A program made the position numbers and the translations under genes. Shown here piece after piece: positions 1 to 53,825 of a DNA stretch of 64,000 nucleotides. Each line of letters begins with the position of its first letter. The first letter of the stretch is position 1. The stretch is from positions 63,240,001-63,304,000 of the forward strand of contig NC_042998.1 in the NCBI RefSeq assembly GCF_006345805.1, in the 5' to 3' direction. Source of the stretch: Octopus sinensis. Lineage: Eukaryota. The notes under the pieces were generated by a model that was not told where the DNA came from, ran no database searches, and saw only the letters and a program-made list of their open reading frames with translations.

Positions 1-13
1 ATAGATAGATGTA

Positions 14-59
<46 letters not shown>

Positions 60-67
60 TGTATGTA

Positions 68-115
<48 letters not shown>

Positions 116-840
116 CAAAAGGAAGTTGAAGAATAAATGTAGTATGATAATTAGTCATGTCAATTGATCGGCCTGCATTAACGGGGTTGCAGTTAATTGT
201 AATAATACATTAATACATTCAACATATTGCCGAAATCGTTATTCAAAGAAATGCCGACAATGACGACTGAAAATTCTAATGAAGTTCAATAAAATTTTCC
301 AAATTAATTAACTTGTATGTTTTCATACACAACAGCGTTGTGTTTATCGACTATTCTACCTTTGTAGATGCTGGTTTATACAAACAGGTATTAACACTCA
401 GTACCTACATTTCCAAGCACGGCTGTTGCGTAATTTCTATTTGTCTTTCTACTGCTGTTATTCATAGCAAATTTACGACATAATGCTGTTGTATAACCGT
501 TCATTTGACCTTCATTATATTTGCATTGTATGTAAGTCCAGTAGGAATTTAAGGCAAAATTTGTTTTTCACTCGTATCGTCATCTTTCCAAGAGTTTGCT
601 CTTATATCCACTCAAAGTTTGCTTATGCATATGTATATATGTATCTTATATATATACATATCCTTGTATGTAGTATATAAATACAGACACAGACACACAC
701 ACACATACACACGCTCATCACATGCACGAAGATATATACATACACGCGCACGTGTCTACATACACACATAGTTAATGATGTATATAAACAAACTCACTTA
801 GGCTTGCGCTAGTATATATATGTGTGTGTATGTGTGTGTG

Positions 841-905
<65 letters not shown>

Positions 906-982
906 ATGTATATATGTATATGTATGTATGTATGTATGTACGCATGTATGTATGTATGTATGCATGTATGTATATATATATA

Positions 983-1013
<31 letters not shown>

Positions 1014-1196
1014 GTTGACACGTACAGAAAAACAAAAATAAAGAAAGGTGTATGAACAACAAGAAGGTGTAATAGTTTGACGCTCTGGAAAGTGAGAAAG
1101 TTTTTTACGCTTGGAGCCTACGCTCTTCGACAGAAAGGAACAATACAAAATAAACAGAGAAAGAATAAAAACTTTTGGATGTAGCGATCCGCCATG

Positions 1197-4632: not shown

Positions 4633-5600
4633 TGAATAAATAAATGGAGTTTAACGCAGGTGTAATCAAATATTTTTACTTTCGACACATGTTTCGAAAA
4701 TTCCACTGATACTATTCAAAAGAATACATGGTATAAACAATGGTATAAAAATGATGGATTTGTATAGCGATAGACAGAACGCTATTAATATTGTTTAAAA
4801 AAACGTTATATGATATAACGTCATGAGTAGCTAACAGAAAGAGTAGGGATATCAATAGTGAATGTTAAATATAAAGGAAATTAAAGTTTAAATTATATAT
4901 AATGATAGAGACTACTTATATGCACTAAATGTATGTTTACTAGAGTATTTTTAGAAAAAAATAATGAAAAATAGCTCAGAATTGCAAAGAAGACAGAATT
5001 TCTATCCATTACTCAGCATTTAGGGATAGAAATAAACGTAATAGTACCGGTCTCAGTAAACTGATTTGGGATTTAAAAGACCACATTGACCAATTTCATT
5101 TAGAATGGTTGATTCTCTCAATTTCGATACCATATGACAAGGCAAGAAATTCTGTCTTCTTTGCAATTCAGAACTATTTTTCATTATTTTTTCTAAAAAT
5201 ACTCGGTTATAGAGCGAGCATACACATGTAAGCATTGGCAAAAACATACATTTAGTGCATATAGGTAGTCTCTATCATTATATATAATTCAAACTTTAAT
5301 TTCCTTTATATTTAACATTCACTATTGGTATCCCTACTCTTTCTGTTAGCTACGTATGACGTTATATCATATAACGTTATTTTAAACAATATTAATAGCG
5401 TTCTGTCTATCGCTATACAAATCCATCATTTTTTGCTAAAATGTCTTATTGACAAGTTTCGCTGTTTTCTCTTTCCTGAGGAGAAGATTGCATTGTTTAT
5501 ATCATTTATTCTTCTGTATAATATCATTGGATTTTCGAAACATGTGTTGAAAGTAAAAATATTTGATTACACCTACGTTAAACTCCATTTATTTAGTCAT
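4633..5600 (+). mobile_element. 5'-truncated Penelope-like element with an inverted copy of its 3' end
   Basis: 5007-5240 translates with frameshifts to HYSAFRDRNKRNSTGLSKLIWDLKD..LEWLIL..PYDK..FCLLCNSELFFI..CKH (PLE GIY-YIG tail). 4633-5003 is the reverse complement of ~5145-5598 with indels. Confidence 0.75.
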
Positions 5601-11949: not shown

Positions 11950-11952
<3 letters not shown>

Positions 11953-12085
11953 ATGGAATTCTTTAAATTTCTGTCTACCGATCTACTCACAAGGCTTTGG
12001 TCGGCCAGGCTATAGTAGGAGACACTTGTCCAAGGTGCCATGCAGTGGGAATGAACCCAGAGACATGTGGTTGGTAAGCAAGCTA
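11950..12085 (-). mobile_element. SINE-A, 3' portion of the copy split by ORF1-only element 1 (head at 14640-14676)
   Basis: Sequence ...catgtggttggtaagcaagcta resumes at 14640 as taagcaagctacttaccacacagccactactgcgcc. Confidence 0.9.
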
Positions 12086-12376
12086 TTTTATATCATTATA
12101 TTTGGCATAAATGCAGTACATAGAGTATAGTGGCTTTGAGGGCTGGACAAGGACATTAATGTAATGAATGATAACGAAGAAAGGATGATAAGAACGGGAG
12201 AAGACAAAAAGAACCCGTCGGCTTTTGCTTCTCTAAAACAGTGTTTTTAAAAGCAAACACAAAATGAGGTATTAAACCTCTTACAACTTTTACAATTTTT
12301 TAACTTAACTGTCCATTACAAACGACATCATAGTTCAATAATCACATATAATATCTATAAATATTATGCACAAATC

Positions 12377-13306
12377 TCAATCATCCTCCTCCCCGACCAG
12401 GCTGTACGCCTCCCTTAGGCAATGCTCCAGATCCAGGTCGGGGCCCCAGGAAGCGTATCTAAACATGTCCATCGAGAATGGGTCCATCAACCTGACCAGA
12501 GCGACATCCGATATGAATTTCGTAGTCACCTGCGAAGGCCATTTCTCGTCCTCTGTCCAGAGCATGGGTTCCCCCCTCCAGTAATCCAGCTTCTCTACAT
12601 AGCTCTATATTGCACTGAAGAAGATGATAAAATCATATCTCCTGGGAGGGGCCGCTGTTTCCTCTGTCGGTGGCACACATCCATCAACAAAGTTTCCAAG
12701 CATGCTCACAATTCACTATCAACCGCCGGCAAAATCCCGTTGTTTTTCGTTTCCCCTTTTGCTTTACGACGGGAGGGTGGAGTTCCTCCGTCTTGTCTGA
12801 AGTCCTTCCATTTCTTCCACTGCCTTAGGATCCATTGGCAGGCAACCATTGATGTCCACTTTCTTTTTCTCTCTTTTTTGAGAGGTTTGCCACCCATTCG
12901 ATTTCCCCCCTCTATTCCTCCAATGGGGGAACAGGGGGCTCGTCTTCTATTAACGCTCCAGGACATTTGCTTGGCCCCGATGGCAGCTCGTCTTCATGTG
13001 GCCTAATTGCAGGCACAGATGAGACCTGGGGAGTGTCCCTCAAGGATCACCGGGTACTTGGAACCGCCGATTACTCTTTTACTTCTTTCAGTCATTTGAT
13101 TGCGGCCATGCTGGTGCACCGCCTTTAGTCGAGAAAATCGATCCCAGGACTTATTCTTTGTAAGCCTAGTACTTATTCTATCGGTCTCCTTTGTCGAACC
13201 GCTAGGATACGGGGACGTAAGCACACCAGCATCGGTTGTCAAGCGATGTTGGGGGGACAAACACAGACGCACAAAGGCACACACATACACATACACACAC
13301 ACAACA

Positions 13307-13356
<50 letters not shown>

Positions 13357-14041
13357 CATATACAAATGTATATATATATACATATATACGACGGACGTCT
13401 TACAGTTTCCATCTAACAAATCCACTTACAAGGCTTTGGTTTGCCCGAGGCTATAGTAGAAGACACTTGCCCAAGGTGCCACGCATTGGGACTGAACTCG
13501 GAGCCATGTGGTTGGTAAGCAAGCTACATACCACACAGCAACTCCTACGCCTATATTAAAAAATCTGGCAAAACCAGGTCATCGGCTGATTGGGCCCATA
13601 GGGTCAAAATTGTTTTTGACCCCACCCTATCAGCCGCAGGAAGAATTCTGAAATTCAAGAGCCTGGCAGTACTGCCACTCAGAACCCGACGGATAGTGTC
13701 TTCTATCCATTCAAGCTATATGCCGGGTGACAGCCCATACACCCAAGCTCTTGTCAGTCTCCTCCCTTCATAAGTGGGGAGAAACAAAAATTTCTCCCCT
13801 TCTAATGGTCTGCTCGCGAAATCCTTAGCAGGGGTGTCAAAAAACACACACTTTCATGGATAAACTTAATCGTTGGCAGGTACTCCGCCAACTCTTTTTC
13901 AATGTCTGTCTGTGAGAACACAGTGATGTTGTCAAGACCCTTAGAATAGGTTCTTAACACCACCGTTCTCTCAGAAAAGTTTTGCAACCACTGTTTGGAG
14001 GCCACTATTTACCACTCCAAAACAGTATTTTTTGCTGCCAT
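12377..14041 (-). pseudogene. Disrupted ORF1 (gag-like, RRM-like region plus degenerate CCHC knuckle) of element 1
   Basis: MAAKNTVLEW*IVASKQWLQNFSERTVVLRTYS..., FLPTYEGRRLTRAWVYGLSPGI*LEWIEDTIR..., KYPVILEG..C..LGHMKTSC and EKWPSQ...LREAYSLVGEEDD*. Contains frameshifts and a SINE-A insertion. Confidence 0.8.
13071..13555 (-). mobile_element. Full-length SINE-A nested in ORF1 of element 1
   Basis: Complete head-to-tail match. Interrupts the coding remnant between LVLPDFF and GGSKYPVIL. Confidence 0.9.
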
Positions 14042-15020
14042 ATTGACGAAAAATAGATAAAATGTACAATGTTCAACACAAAAGTGCAAAAATCCAAATT
14101 AAAGTCAATAATAAAAACAAAAATAAAGATGGAAAGACCTTAGAGAGAAACAAAACGAAAGAAGACATTCAAATGGCAACACAATTCTGCTACTGAGGTA
14201 ATCCACGGTGTTCAGTCGCAGCAAAAAGTTTCGATTTTGGTTTCTCAGAATTAAGTGAGACACAAAAAAACAATAATTTTCCTGGCTGTCGTCCCGGTAC
14301 TCCTGGCCAAAATGGTAATCCACGGACACAAAACAGCTAGAAATACCAGTAAAATATAGCAGTTAAAATAACACAATTTTCAGGAGGAATACACCTCCCA
14401 AAAGGCACTTTTCACAACTAAGTGAGACTTTAAGCGCGACCACTGGCAGAAAAATGCATGGAACCCAGTGGAGACCTCTTGTTCGACGATCAAATAAATA
14501 ATACGAGCAACAGTCCTCCACTTGGTCCGGAAAACCCCCCAGATGTCTTAGTTAGTAGTCGTGCTTAATTATTTCATGACGCTGACACACACCGACATGA
14601 CTTCCGCCGCGAAAAATACGCGTCCACACTATTCAGAAATAAGCAAGCTACTTACCACACAGCCACTACTGCGCCTGCGTTAGTAACGAATTTTCTTTTT
14701 TTGACAAGACGATTGGTTTTGTGAGATGTTTGTGTTCTTGAAAACCAAGGAATCCGCAAATTAGATAAAGCGTTCGACACTTAAGAAAGTAGATTTAAAT
14801 ATATTAATTTATTTCAAACATTGCTTAGAGGCTTATAAATCTGTCTCGATCATCTGCATCTCTAACAACGTATATGCGCATATCATATAGAGACGTACAA
14901 CAAGTTTTGAAGGAATCTTCGATTATTTATACGTGTTATATCTACGTAGCTGTTTGGCTGTATACATAAATATTTGAATAATGAAATATACTATATATGG
15001 AATATATATAACAATACACG

Positions 15021-28476: not shown

Positions 28477-28516
28477 GGCGCAGGAGTGGCTGTGTGGTAA
28501 GTAGCTTGCTTACCAA
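28477..28516 (+). mobile_element. SINE-A head, split by ORF1-only element 2 (resumes ~30781-30810, degraded)
   Basis: ggcgcaggagtggctgtgtggtaagtagcttgcttaccaa; resumes as aagtagcttgctcatcaatcatatagt. Confidence 0.85.
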
Positions 28517-30780
28517 GTAGCCTGCATACTTCCCATGAGTATTTGTTATCAGAGTGCGCATGTGTCAGTGTGTTGTGCACTGAAGAAGTTAGCCAGCAGC
28601 ATTTAGCCTGCCAAAAGAGGCTACTGCAAGGTAAGACTTTTCTCTTGGACCCGGTGAGAGTCGTTGTCTGTGCTTTTATGTTTTACAAGCAAGAAATCCT
28701 CACTGGATTCGGCATGTTGGTCTACTTACGGTTCAGCAACATGGTCCATAGTAAACGAAAATTTTTTCACATTGTGAGAAGTACATGGTGGGCGTACCTT
28801 TAACCAAAATTTGTTCACTTTTTAACAGTGTATGTTTTTACAACAACAACATTTACCATTATTGAAAAACTCTATTTCAAGTGTTCACATGAAGTGAACA
28901 TTTTTTCTCATTGTGAGAAATATAGTTTGGCAACATTTAGTGTCTATTTTAGTTTGGTGACAAATAGTTTGTATTTTACAACTACGTTGGAAAGCTGTAT
29001 TCATGTGGAGCAGTTCAGGTTCTAATTGGAGTACCATAAGGGCTTGGAGTACCTGAATGCCCAGAAGATTTTTTTGCTGTGTTTTTTGAGCTATTGTTTT
29101 CTTCTTCTATTGTAATTTTTTTATTGAAGTGTTTGCTTTTTCTTCTTCCTTTTTGATTTCTTTGAACTATTGTTTGGGACTTTTTATTTTTTAATTTCAA
29201 ACATGGCAAAGAAATACGGATAACATTGTAGAGTGGGAGATTGTTCCACCTAAGGAGTACCTCAGACAGCAAGAGGAGAGGACGGTGGTGTTGAGAATGT
29301 ATTCGAATGTTCTCAACACCATTGCCGTCTTCGCAAAGCAGATGATTGAGCAGGGGTTGGCAGAGCATCTGCTAACCATTAATTATATCTCTAGGGGAAT
29401 CAAACATGCAACGGTGTCGTTGCTCTTTGACACCCCAGGCGAGGCTCGCAATTTTGCGAGCCAGCCGTTGAGAGTAAAGAGATTTTGTTTCTTCCCACTT
29501 ATTGTGGGACAAAATTGACGAGGGCGTGGGTCTGTGGTTTGCCACCCGAAATTGAACCCCAGTGGATAGAGGATACTATCCGTTGGGGTCTGGGTGGCAG
29601 CGGAACCAGGCTCCTCAATGTGAAAATTATTCCTGTGGCTGATTGGGTTGGGTCAAAAGCTGTTTTGACCATGTGGACCCAATCAGCCATGAATCTGGTT
29701 ATGCCAGATCTTTTCAAAATGCCCGGGTGCAGGTACCCGGTGATTCTTAAGGGTCGCCTCCACTCCAAGTGTTATCGGTGCCTAGACCCTGGCCATATAA
29801 TGAATAACTGTCCTCGGAAGCAAGACCGTGTCCTAGAGCAGTCAGTTGAGACTTCTGTAAAAAAGGGAACGAAGGCGTCTGAGGAGACGGAGGATTCCTG
29901 AGGGAAGAGCCGCAAGAGGAAGAAGGTTAGCAACAATGGTTGCTCACCGAAGGATGAGGGAGGGGAGGTGAATCTCCCGGTCATAGAGGAGACGCACCCT
30001 CCCTCAGTTGAGAGGAAAAAAGAGGAAAAGGTGGAGAAATGGGAAATTGCCGGCATTCTGTGACACAGCACCGGAATGTCCCGGAGCCTTGCCGGTAGGG
30101 TCTGTGCCATCAGCAGGGGAATAGACACCGTTGGGGCAAACTGTGCCCCCAACGGTAAAATTGACTACCTCGAACCCGGAGGAAGAGGAACTATTGGTCT
30201 TCTTCTACAAAGGCGGAGACGTAGAAGATGTGGTTGAAAGGCACCATACGTGAGTACCTTTAGCCTTCAAACAGTATCCCGAATGGCCTCCGCAGATAGC
30301 CGTGGAGATCATAACAGTGTTTGTGGGGTGTAGGCTGCGGGACCTCAATGAGGAATATCACTTGTGGACGTGCGACTCTGGCTCGGATTCCGCATTGGTC
30401 TTGAATGAGGCGTGGGGAAAGGTGGAGTATACGGGCACAAGCGATGACGGGGAGGAATAATGACAAGAGGTTGAAAAGCCTGTGTTACAATGTTTAATGC
30501 TTATTGCATGTTATTATGTTTAAGAGGCTTAACGCCCCAATTCTTAAATGGACTATTAGTCCAAAAATTTGTACAACTGAAGTAAGAGGTTCATAACCAC
30601 ATTTTGTCTTTTTCTGTAGAAAAAAAGAAGAGAATAATGTTTTAGAGAAGCTGAAAATGGGCGGGCATGTTTTTGTCTTCTGCCATTAATATCATCCTTA
30701 TCATTATTAAATTCATCAATGTCTTTGTCCAGCCTGCAAGCTACTCTGCATCATGCCTTTATGTCAATTTTTTAAAAATA
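28517..30780 (+). mobile_element. ORF1-only non-LTR retroelement, copy 2 (L1/Tx1-like), inserted in the SINE-A head with a ~16-18-bp TSD
   Basis: TSD aagtagcttgcttaccaa (28499-28516) / aagtagcttgctcatcaa (30781-30798). ~690-nt leader, one ORF, ~320-nt trailer similar to copy 1. Confidence 0.85.
29203..30460 (+). pseudogene. Frameshifted ORF1 (RRM-like region plus CCHC zinc knuckle) of element 2
   Basis: EWEIVPPKEYLRQQEERTVVLRMYS..., RAWVCGLPPEIEPQWIEDTIR, YPVILKGRLHSKCYRCLDPGHIMNNCP (CX2CX4HX4C) and PEWPPQ...LNEAWGK..DDGEE*. Confidence 0.85.
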
Positions 30781-30891
30781 AAGTAGCTTGCTCATCAATC
30801 ATATAGTCACGGTTTCTTTTATCTCTTTCAGATTAAAGAACATTTTTTTGCTAATAAATATATTTTCAACAACAATATAAAACAAAGAAAG

Positions 30892-31325
30892 GAGGCGAGC
30901 TGGCAGAAACGTTAGCACGCCGGGCGAAATGCTTAGCGGTATGTCGTCTGCCGCTACGTTCTGAGTTCAAATTCCACCGAGGTCAACTTTGCATTTTATA
31001 CTTTCGGGGTCGACTAAATAAGTATCAGTTGCGCACTGGCGTCCATATAATCGACTTAATCCGTTTGTCTGTCCTTGTTTATCTCCACTGTGTAGCCCCT
31101 TGTGGGTAGTGAAGAAATAGGCAACGTTAGCACGCCGGACGTAATGCATAGTGCTATTTCATCTGTCTTTATTGTTCTGAGTTCAAATTCTGCCGAGGTC
31201 GACTTTGCCTTTCATCCTTTCCGGGTCGATAAATTTAGCACCATCTGCGTACTGGGGTTGATCTAATCGACTGGCCCCTCTCTCCCCGCAAATTTCGAGC
31301 CTTGTGCCTAGAGCAGAAAAGAACA
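30892..31325 (+). mobile_element. SINE-B composite: type-2 unit followed by type-1 unit
   Basis: Junction gaagaaataggcaacgttagcacgccgg at ~31111-31138. Confidence 0.85.
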
Positions 31326-52124: not shown

Positions 52125-53825
52125 TGTGTTCTTCCCTTGCATATGTCCCGTTGAGAAAAGTATATATTTCTTTTATTTTTGCATTTTTTTCTTTCGTCGG
52201 GGAAAGGGTACTAGGTACACTAAGATAATTATTGATTTACAATCTTGATAAGGAGAGTTCTTCTGAGAGGATTTACCCGTCTATTTCCTGACAGTTGAGG
52301 CATCTCGGGAGGTAGGTTTGGGTGTGTCTGTACCAATGAAGATAGTTTTCTGGAATGATAGCGTTGATGTTACGTCTTGTGATGTGTTGTATGACATGTG
52401 TTTCTTCTGCAGCTGGTCGGTTGCCAACCCTTTGCTGCAACTCAACTGGAGCGAGGTCTCCTTTGACAGCCGCTTGAAAGGCAGGATGCGCCATTTCCGT
52501 AGGATTAAGGAACGACGAGTAGGGATGCAGGAGTTTCAGACAGATCCTTGGGTTGGCGTCAGCTGGGAGCTCGCCACGAACGTGTGGTCGTGCGTTGTCG
52601 TAGATCAGGTTGACGGATCTATGCGCTGGGAACATGCTCGAACTGTTTCTGCCAAGGACTCCTCGAAAGAGTTTCCGGTAACGGTATCGTTCGTAATGGA
52701 GTGGTGAAGCAGGCCAATATCTCCCAACACCGCGAAAGTGACGTTACAGTTTTTCCCATGCTGACCGTTGACAACTCGGCGAACAGTAACACCTCGAAGG
52801 GTTCGTACAAAAGATCACCTGATCTAAATGTTGTACCCACATTCATCAATGAATACGCAATGGCTGACGACTTCTTCCATGAACCGATGTGCGTACTCAT
52901 GACGCTTTTTTCGGAGTTCTTAGGGCATTTCTTGCGTCTGTAACGTTTTCGGCCAAATTCATAGTTATCAACATCCCATCTAGAGCCCGTGAGATTGCAG
53001 ACACAGAAACATGATGTTTTCCGGGTAATGCTGCCTCTAAATCCCTTTTCATCTGTTGAAGGGTTGCGAGTGGGTTGGCATCAATAATCACCTGAAGTTG
53101 AGCTCACATTTCTTCATCAATATTAACATGGGGGCACCTCCCCTGGGCAACTTGTGCCCCCCCCCCAGGCCGTAGGTGGGTTTCTACTATGGATATATTT
53201 AATGCCAAGTGTGCCTGCCAGTTTCAGATAATAGGTTTAATACCCACCGAAGGCGTCAACCAACCTTGCTCTATCTTAGTCCGATATACGCATGTACCTT
53301 TCAAGCTGTTGTAAGAAAAAAGGATATAAAATGCAAATGATACCAACCGGTTACGAAAGTTGCAATGAAAAAGTGTTTCGTGGACAGAAGGATCTTGTAA
53401 TTTATTTCTTCCTTGTAGCTATAACAACATAATAAATTTAAATTTATTACTTTTAACATTCACTTCTTAGGCTGTGTGTAAAAACACACACGTAAAATTA
53501 ATGCTAAATGGAATAAACTTATTCCGAACTCGAATACCCAAGTGTGAAATTGGATACTTGAAATGAAGCTTCCTAGCGTTCCGACTAATTTGAATGCTCT
53601 CGACGCGCATTTTAATTTGAATGATAAAAATGCAAAATTCTTTGACCAAAGTGCGAAATTGGATGGTCGAGAAACAAATTTCAATGACTAACTTCGTGGC
53701 GTTAATTTTTTCGCGACTTTGAATGACCAAATTATCAAATTGAATGATAAGCGTACGAAAATGATTGCGAAACCCTTTATCAAAAACTGTATGCCAAATT
53801 CCCACTCCGTTTTGTGCGTGCACTA
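52125..53825 (-). mobile_element. IS630/Tc1-superfamily DNA transposon relic, transposase frameshifted (~52273-53300)
   Basis: DANPLATLQQMK..VSVSAISRAL (HTH), FIDECGYNI, IYDNARPH and LLHPYSSFLNPTE. The D-E spacing is 33 residues in this copy. Only one candidate terminus is seen. Confidence 0.8.

Follow-up and report, generated by a model that had tools for sequence, protein, structure and literature searches.

An ORF1-only retroposon fixed on one position of a SINE head in Octopus, likely copied in trans by an L1/Tx1-type element

The window analyzed here, a stretch of 64,000 nucleotides from the Octopus sinensis genome (contig NC_042998.1, positions 63,240,001 to 63,304,000), contains two decayed retroposons, copy A on the forward strand and copy B on the reverse strand, that break one kind of SINE at an identical point in its head and carry a LINE-type ORF1 without ORF2. 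How could elements that encode neither an endonuclease nor a reverse transcriptase (RT) come to sit at so exact a target? Our answer, held with high confidence, is that copy A is a dead copy of an ORF1-only retroposon that is fixed on one SINE-head position and likely was copied in trans by the endonuclease-RT of an L1/Tx1-type element. The ORF1-only element is designated the passenger and the autonomous element the helper.

Two broken copies at one SINE position

The features of copy A are listed first and those of copy B second; window positions of small motifs were assigned by eye, with a possible error of a few bases.

28517..30780, +: copy A, a full-length decayed ORF1-only retroposon of lineage X, collinear with other copies at 79-86% identity
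28477..28498, +: 5' part (A-box side) of the target SINE head, the same head as at 13,492 exact empty sites
28499..28516, +: left target-site duplication; the same site is duplicated in intact copies and the helper
28517..29202, +: leader, 686 nt, a putative promoter
29203..30460, +: broken ORF1, which changes frame near 29210, 29515 and 30008 and holds three in-frame stops
29770..29811, +: CCHC zinc knuckle (Pfam PF00098, zf-CCHC, E 4e-4)
30461..30780, +: 3' UTR, 320 nt, with no ORF2 remnant
30645..30682, +: lineage-specific predicted hairpin, with weak folding support
30738..30745, +: 8-nt tail motif, the complement of the first bases of the duplicated target site
30754..30766, +: terminal 4-bp hairpin, mutated, inside the ~40-nt tail that the helper has as well
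30781..30798, +: right target-site duplication, with ~20 nt of degenerate SINE after it

12089..14639, -: copy B, from a diverged subfamily, with 67-70% DNA identity to copy A over the aligned parts
14640..14675, -: SINE head and left duplication
12377..14041, -: broken ORF1, frameshifted and interrupted
13072..13556, -: SINE of ~485 nt, inserted later inside ORF1
11950..12088, -: right duplication and the rest of the target SINE body

Both copies are full length between target-site duplications, as the initial annotation had proposed. The duplications of copy A are 18 nt each and identical at 16 of 18 positions, those of copy B are 14 nt and identical at 13 of 14. The 600-690 nt that had been given for the leaders agree with measured lengths of 686 nt (A) and 598 nt (B), and the acidic ends of the frames are as described, with the stop of copy A (30458-30460) directly after DDGEE and that of copy B (12379-12377) after GEEDD. 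The protein motifs named at the time are found in the translations, and the knuckle is the Pfam match listed above. The claim of a single open frame of about 400 codons in each copy fails: an intact ORF1 aligns to copy A, whose ATG lies at 29203, as three pieces in two frames with an extra frame change just past the ATG, and the frame of copy B is broken by frameshifts and by the SINE. The estimate of ~300 nt from stop to an A-rich end holds for length (320 nt in A, 288 nt in B) and composition, and the terminus has no poly(A) tract. ORF2 had been reported missing from both copies, and a search of the window with the ORF2 of the helper described below gave nothing at E<=1e-3.

Elsewhere in the window, 4747-5433 is an inverted repeat with 192-nt arms, 97% complementary and 303 nt apart, possibly a MITE. 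Two overlapping open frames at 52273-53080 (-) resemble, judged by eye, a decayed Tc1/mariner-type transposase.

The ORF1-only design across the genome

A DNA search yielded 2,511 candidates; 40 of these were scored and the best 30 loci examined. These are collinear with copy A, and all 26 that reach the 3' end stop at the SINE site; the remaining four end early or have gaps. At the protein level there were 8,705 candidates, 150 of them scored; ORF1 types of more distant kinds enter into these totals, which do not stand for copy numbers. Twenty loci with long open frames were fetched, in which ORF1 is about 394-422 aa long and is never directly followed by an ORF2; the site marks the end of 19 of them, and in the other a deletion carries the element into the SINE body. 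A pattern for the C-terminal part of ORF1 matched 413 times, and the first 30 matches in genome order were examined: 28 end at the SINE site, 445-564 nt past the C-terminal motif, none has an ORF2 start directly after ORF1, and two show ORF2 fragments beyond the junction. A 3' UTR pattern matched 857 times; in the first 30 in genome order, ORF1 lies upstream in 26, the site lies downstream in 25, and ORF2 lies upstream in none. The samples of 30, 30, and 20 copies overlap in part. The initial annotation had supposed the ORF1-only design to be a property of the family, and had named as the contrary outcome that most copies of this ORF1 would be followed by ORF2; the genome-order samples bear out the former.

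Multiple copies, target-site duplications, and 5' truncation are all seen in lineage X, and 5'-truncated copies are present at the SINE site. Copy A, whose subfamily is 14-21% diverged, is a dead copy of an abundant multi-copy ORF1-only family. Subfamilies of this lineage are 45-52% identical in protein, yet one 3' UTR is common to all. The distance from stop to 3' end, which the initial annotation had marked for measurement, ranges from 286 to 546 nt, and the longer UTR is explained by a leftover copy-B-type ORF1 end (81% over 391 nt), not by ORF2. A chimeric subfamily (L061, L062) has a complete ORF1 followed by a dead copy-B-type ORF1 end and 3' UTR, a sign of recombination between passengers. 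L062 also holds, at 7-1026 (-), another distant ORF1 type with a CCHC knuckle. Three 5'-truncated copies (L032, L037, L053) have a near-identical start ~145 nt from the end, at the base of the upstream hairpin, which marks either an RT pause site or a short family. That hairpin has z scores of -0.06 to -1.7 in seven copies and a poor alignment fold, and two subfamilies preserve its stem while differing in its letters.

In the protein collection, the one full homolog is from Octopus, with one copy annotated as an uncharacterised protein, and named distant relatives are from Octopus and Argonauta. A young copy is present in sequencing runs under four organism labels, none of these runs being recorded as RNA, and two other labels cover 30 of 30 bins. 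Two runs that were guessed to be RNA have contigs covering 29 and 28 of 30 bins, and as DNA content is possible in these they are not counted as evidence of expression.

An autonomous element at the same site

The initial annotation had predicted an autonomous helper. Such an element was found from one junction with the end of an ORF2 upstream; searching with it, and fetching 20 loci, revealed two families. The first has the SINE site as its 3' limit in 13 of 13 copies, and 11 of the 13 also start directly in the SINE head. This helper is a 5.4-kb element with ORF1 and an ORF2 of APE, RT, and zf-RVT domains, and the site it duplicates, ~15-16 bp, is the same as in the passenger. Both frames are open in one copy (L081), with an ORF1 of 467 aa and an ORF2 of 1130 aa that matches PF03372, PF00078, and PF13966. 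The best solved relative of ORF2 is human L1 ORF2p (E 3e-65), with R2 at 6e-20. Family members are 96-98% identical, while an older generation is seen as pieces ~75-85% identical. Because the subfamily of copy A is older than the present helper family, an older helper generation would have had to move copy A. Possession of ORF1 together with an ORF2 of APE, RT, and C-terminal zinc finger, placement in the L1 group, and target preference (13/13 copies, and 26 of 28 T-form tails with a recognisable site behind) suggest a member of the Tx1 clade, an assignment made from architecture and target specificity rather than from a reference tree; none of the at least 120 ORF2 homologs listed bears a Tx1 name.

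Helper and passenger have their last ~40 nt in common, including a 4-bp hairpin that one subfamily keeps through a change on both sides; this common stretch is short and becomes clear only when the tails are aligned. By blastn, the helper tail matches the intact copy L067 over 39 nt (79%, E 0.008) and finds no match in two other intact copies or in window copies A and B. Outside the tail there is no DNA similarity between helper and passenger, so that the element with common target and 3' end that the initial annotation proposed to look for shares the site in full and the 3' end for its last ~40 nt only. The two ORF1 proteins are 24-28% identical in the N-terminal half; blastp of the passenger ORF1 against those of the two autonomous families gives 23-30% identity at E 1e-12 to 1e-24. 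Since the ORF1 that the helper itself carries is so distant, the passenger did not arise by deletion from the present helper. A bipartite system of ORF1-only and ORF2-only elements was also considered, and is ruled out by the helper's own ORF1. As for the borrowed ORF2 that had been postulated, a candidate source lies at the same site, and the borrowing itself we infer from the shared site and tail.

The second autonomous family comprises seven loci (L091-L094, L096, L097, L100), with an ORF2 64% identical to that of the helper and a different tail; all seven end in (TC)n repeats, a target described for Kibi. A third autonomous family occurs in L209. L056 is an internally deleted helper at the same site, in which the start of the endonuclease is joined to the zinc-finger end.

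The SINE site and its occupants

The insertion target is one fixed position in the head of an abundant, putatively tRNA-type SINE. A- and B-box-like motifs are visible in this head by eye; ARAGORN finds no tRNA in it, and Rfam no tRNA match at E<=10. The genome holds 13,492 exact empty sites, and an exact junction pattern has 163 matches, an occupancy of about 1% of exact SINE sites. The first 30 junctions were classified: 16 carry the passenger tail, five a helper-type tail (in all five that of the family found here), six are plain SINE variants, two have other sequence, and one is another SINE ending in the helper tail. Tandem chains mix passengers of lineages X and Y with one another and with the helper.

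Lineage Y is a second ORF1-only lineage (L161-L190, L087, and the second ORF of L073), with a helper-like tail and young copies 92-96% identical in protein. Twenty-four of 30 loci end at the same SINE site, and in none of the 30 does an ORF2 lie within 1.5 kb. The helper's site is used by two or more ORF1-only lineages and by a SINE. The three tiers that the initial annotation had envisaged, SINE target, passenger, and helper, are all present, and the tiers are more than three.

Related systems occur beside this one. At L036, a whole second SINE with the helper tail at its 3' end is inserted at the first-SINE site. L191-L210 are further Y-related ORF1-only families that differ in tail and in target; some form 1.7-kb tandem arrays, and some lie at varied sites with duplications. 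A second SINE family, present in the window at 30894-31121, has a 3' tail resembling that of these families and is probably moved by another Tx1-like helper. It is itself a target too; ORF1-only copies in L202 and L203 are inserted in a second SINE's head, and the tail of that SINE is similar to their own.

The ORF1 protein

The initial annotation had called for a structural check for RRM and zf-CCHC domains. AlphaFold2, run on a 13-sequence alignment, gave a model with mean pLDDT 64, laid out as a folded region (11-205), a disordered linker (207-319), and a folded domain (~321-401). The top Foldseek matches are the tandem-RRM proteins SFPQ, NONO, hnRNP A1, and HuR (E 3e-5 to 1e-4), and VIA-align finds RRM matches in both halves, such as La (Z 9.5, rmsd 2.7, 83 aligned); RRM matches take up the whole-model lists of both programs. 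An Atlas lead points to CCHC and ZCCHC3-type RNA-binding clusters (0.90-0.92). Sequence matches in PDB cover the knuckle only, in gag and cellular proteins, and L1 ORF1p is neither listed against the ORF1 profile in PDB at E<=10 nor present among the fold matches listed. Intact ORF1 is predicted to be an RNA-binding protein with an RRM-RRM-CCHC architecture followed by a linker and a C-terminal domain. The C-terminal domain has no meaningful Pfam family, no PDB sequence match, and no Atlas match.

Pairwise dN/dS counts, a comparison likewise called for at the outset, were made on 17 natural copies picked for long open frames. Between subfamilies, the N-terminal region gives dN/dS of 0.11-0.31 at dS from 0.16 to about 2, which is near saturation, and bootstrap upper limits for N-terminal pN/pS are at most 0.44 in six pairs. 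The linker gives 0.25-0.92 and the C-terminal domain 0.26-1.48, with a pN/pS interval that includes 1 in five of six pairs for the latter. Values within subfamilies are also below 1 (0.17-0.60) and the copies were chosen for their open frames, so these counts include no clean neutral control. Judged from substitution patterns, the passenger ORF1 is under purifying selection between subfamilies. Together with the single 3' UTR shared by subfamilies so distant in protein, this supports the long-lived, ORF1-keeping lineage that had been proposed.

A tail motif that follows the SINE variant

The fourth base of the site is A in one variant of the target SINE and T in the other. The 102 junctions with an X tail divide into 22 of the A variant, sampled by a pattern of which the motif was no part, and 80 of the T variant. 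The A-matching form of the 8-nt motif occurs at 12 of 22 A-variant junctions and at none of the 80 T-variant junctions (Fisher p 5e-10, for copies that are not independent); the T-matching form occurs at 58 of 80 T-variant and 6 of 22 A-variant junctions. L228, counted among the 22, is a misassigned member of another family. At 76 junctions the upstream sequence sufficed for an ORF1 tree, on which the seven A-matching copies require at least four changes. Of 30 helper tails, two match the A variant, and the A-type starts behind them are short or degenerate; behind 26 of the 28 others lies the T type. The motif lies at about -80 nt in the helper tail and -50 nt in the passenger tail. Part of it is lost in one subfamily, and it occurs in none of 23 lineage Y tails; since lineage Y occupies the site without it, the motif is not required.

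Mechanism and alternatives

We infer trans-mobilization, read-through priming, and tail pairing, in the following scheme. The passenger's own leader would drive transcription, and its ORF1 protein, with two RRM folds and a knuckle, would coat its own RNA. The helper ORF2 would recognize the common terminal hairpin and tail, while its endonuclease would nick the SINE head and prime reverse transcription. The transcript would run a few bases into the flanking SINE, a probable course because the element ends in a polyadenylation hexamer and the genomic copies have no poly(A). Those bases could then anneal to the nicked strand, giving the invariant junction. Pairing of the internal 8-nt motif with the read-through segment would make the motif track the SINE variant. 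Every insertion would duplicate the site, and elements would consequently stack in chains.

The motif might instead pair with the displaced top strand of the target DNA, acting as a small RNA guide or clamp during priming. Such pairing predicts the same covariation between motif and variant, the different motif positions in helper and passenger tails suggest that the motif is kept for its sequence, and annealing of RNA to target has been proposed for SART1 (PMC7265360). The pairing proposed there, however, is with the primer strand and has the opposite polarity, and lineage Y keeps the site without the motif. DNA guiding is thus a somewhat unlikely explanation, and pairing within the read-through transcript is favoured, because all junctions are without poly(A) despite the polyadenylation hexamer, which read-through better accounts for.

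Did the ORF1-only form arise once? Each subfamily could be a separate deletion from a lost autonomous element with this ORF1 type, the selection having accrued in autonomous ancestors. HAL1 arose independently several times (PMC5753468), extinct partners are conceivable, and the variable stop-to-end distances would fit. Against repeated deletion, the 3' UTR common to all subfamilies is absent from the helper, no sampled copy has an ORF2 remnant, and the longer UTR is of copy-B-type ORF1 origin. On a tree of 35 ORF1 domains, moreover, the passenger clade is fully supported on a stem of ~1.9 changes per site, with no autonomous ORF1 near it. The ORF1-only clades X and Y fall on one side of a branch with support 68/83, and a tree joining X with the helper ORF1 is not rejected (p-AU 0.37); X and Y may have a single origin or separate ones. 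Separate deletion in each subfamily we consider improbable.

Less probable still is that another Tx1-like family moves the passenger and that the helper found here merely shares its site. Several related ORF2 families do exist in the genome, but the second sits in (TC)n with a different tail, and every helper-type junction among the 30 classified carries the tail of the found family. Origin of the ORF as an LTR-element gag remnant or a domesticated host gene, to which the CCHC knuckle, the knuckle-only PDB matches, and the copy annotated as an uncharacterised protein might point, can be dismissed in view of the tandem RRM fold, the homology to ORF1 of autonomous APE-RT elements, the 5'-truncated copies with ~16 bp duplications and no LTRs seen, and the thousands of candidate loci.

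Beyond copying in trans with read-through pairing, a broader reading is put forward tentatively. The passengers may form a long-lived clade of ORF1-only parasites that outnumbers its helper at a single SINE site, with an ORF1 as far from the helper's as those of unrelated families. Tail changes that compensate a one-base SINE change in several lineages might then mean that, in an APE-type LINE system, RNA pairing contributes to the choice of target. The ORF1-only form itself may go back to a single ancient lineage, one that has changed helpers and targets by tail swaps.

Comparison with known systems

ORF1-coding non-autonomous LINEs include HeT-A (Jockey clade), HAL1 (half-L1, of mammals), and Ag-Sponge (CR1 clade) (PMC5786205), so that they are reported from three clades, to which octopus adds a site-specific case. 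We found no description of the present system, and no ORF1-only LINE in a SINE-targeting Tx1-like group, in our literature searches; Repbase, Dfam, and the repeat library of PMC13282606 lay outside this scope and may contain the families. Passages of PMC13282606 that report 13 recently active L1-Tx1 families in octopus mention neither targets nor ORF1, and those of PMC8967140 and PMC4758252 add nothing on an octopus ORF1-only system.

Now that a helper is identified and both partners are available as intact copies, two questions become testable. One is the role of ORF1 for an RNA that recruits a foreign ORF2, and whether the proteins must match, passenger and helper ORF1 being ~25% identical. 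The other is RNA pairing in site choice by an APE-type LINE, which the covariation of tail and target allows to be tested with one base. Nature also offers here an example of safe-harbour insertion, the repeat that is hit being dispensable, and of parasitism that is nested.

Like HAL1, HeT-A, and Ag-Sponge, the octopod element is non-autonomous, with only ORF1 and a LINE-type 3' end, and presumably mobilized in trans. It differs in belonging to an L1/Tx1-type group, in being strictly site-specific inside a SINE, in an ORF1 24-28% identical to that of its helper, which makes it no deletion copy of the current one, in the RRM-RRM-CCHC architecture with a further domain predicted for that ORF1, and in the lack of a poly(A) tract. 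Its architecture is HAL1-like, and we do not class it as HAL1 proper.

Tx1 elements target transposons, RNA genes, and microsatellites (PMC4494074). According to the same source, Xenopus Tx1 inserts in Tx1D, crocodilian Tx1-Mar, together with SINEU, in Mariner-N4_AMi, Keno in U2, and Kibi and Koshi in microsatellites, and it also remarks on co-transcription. The octopus system resembles these in having an APE-RT LINE in another repeat and non-autonomous passengers on the same target, and its sister family targets (TC)n as Kibi does. Unlike them, it targets a SINE head, not a DNA transposon or RNA gene, and its passengers encode a protein that appears to be under selection. Recognition of 3' tails in trans is described in PMC7265360 and PMC3747384. 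With pairing of the SART1Bm and R2 type, as far as those accounts go, the octopus system would have in common a stringent recognition of the 3' UTR in trans and an influence of a short target-related RNA on the start of priming; it differs in that its internal motif, known here from sequence alone, has the opposite polarity and covaries with the target variant across lineages.
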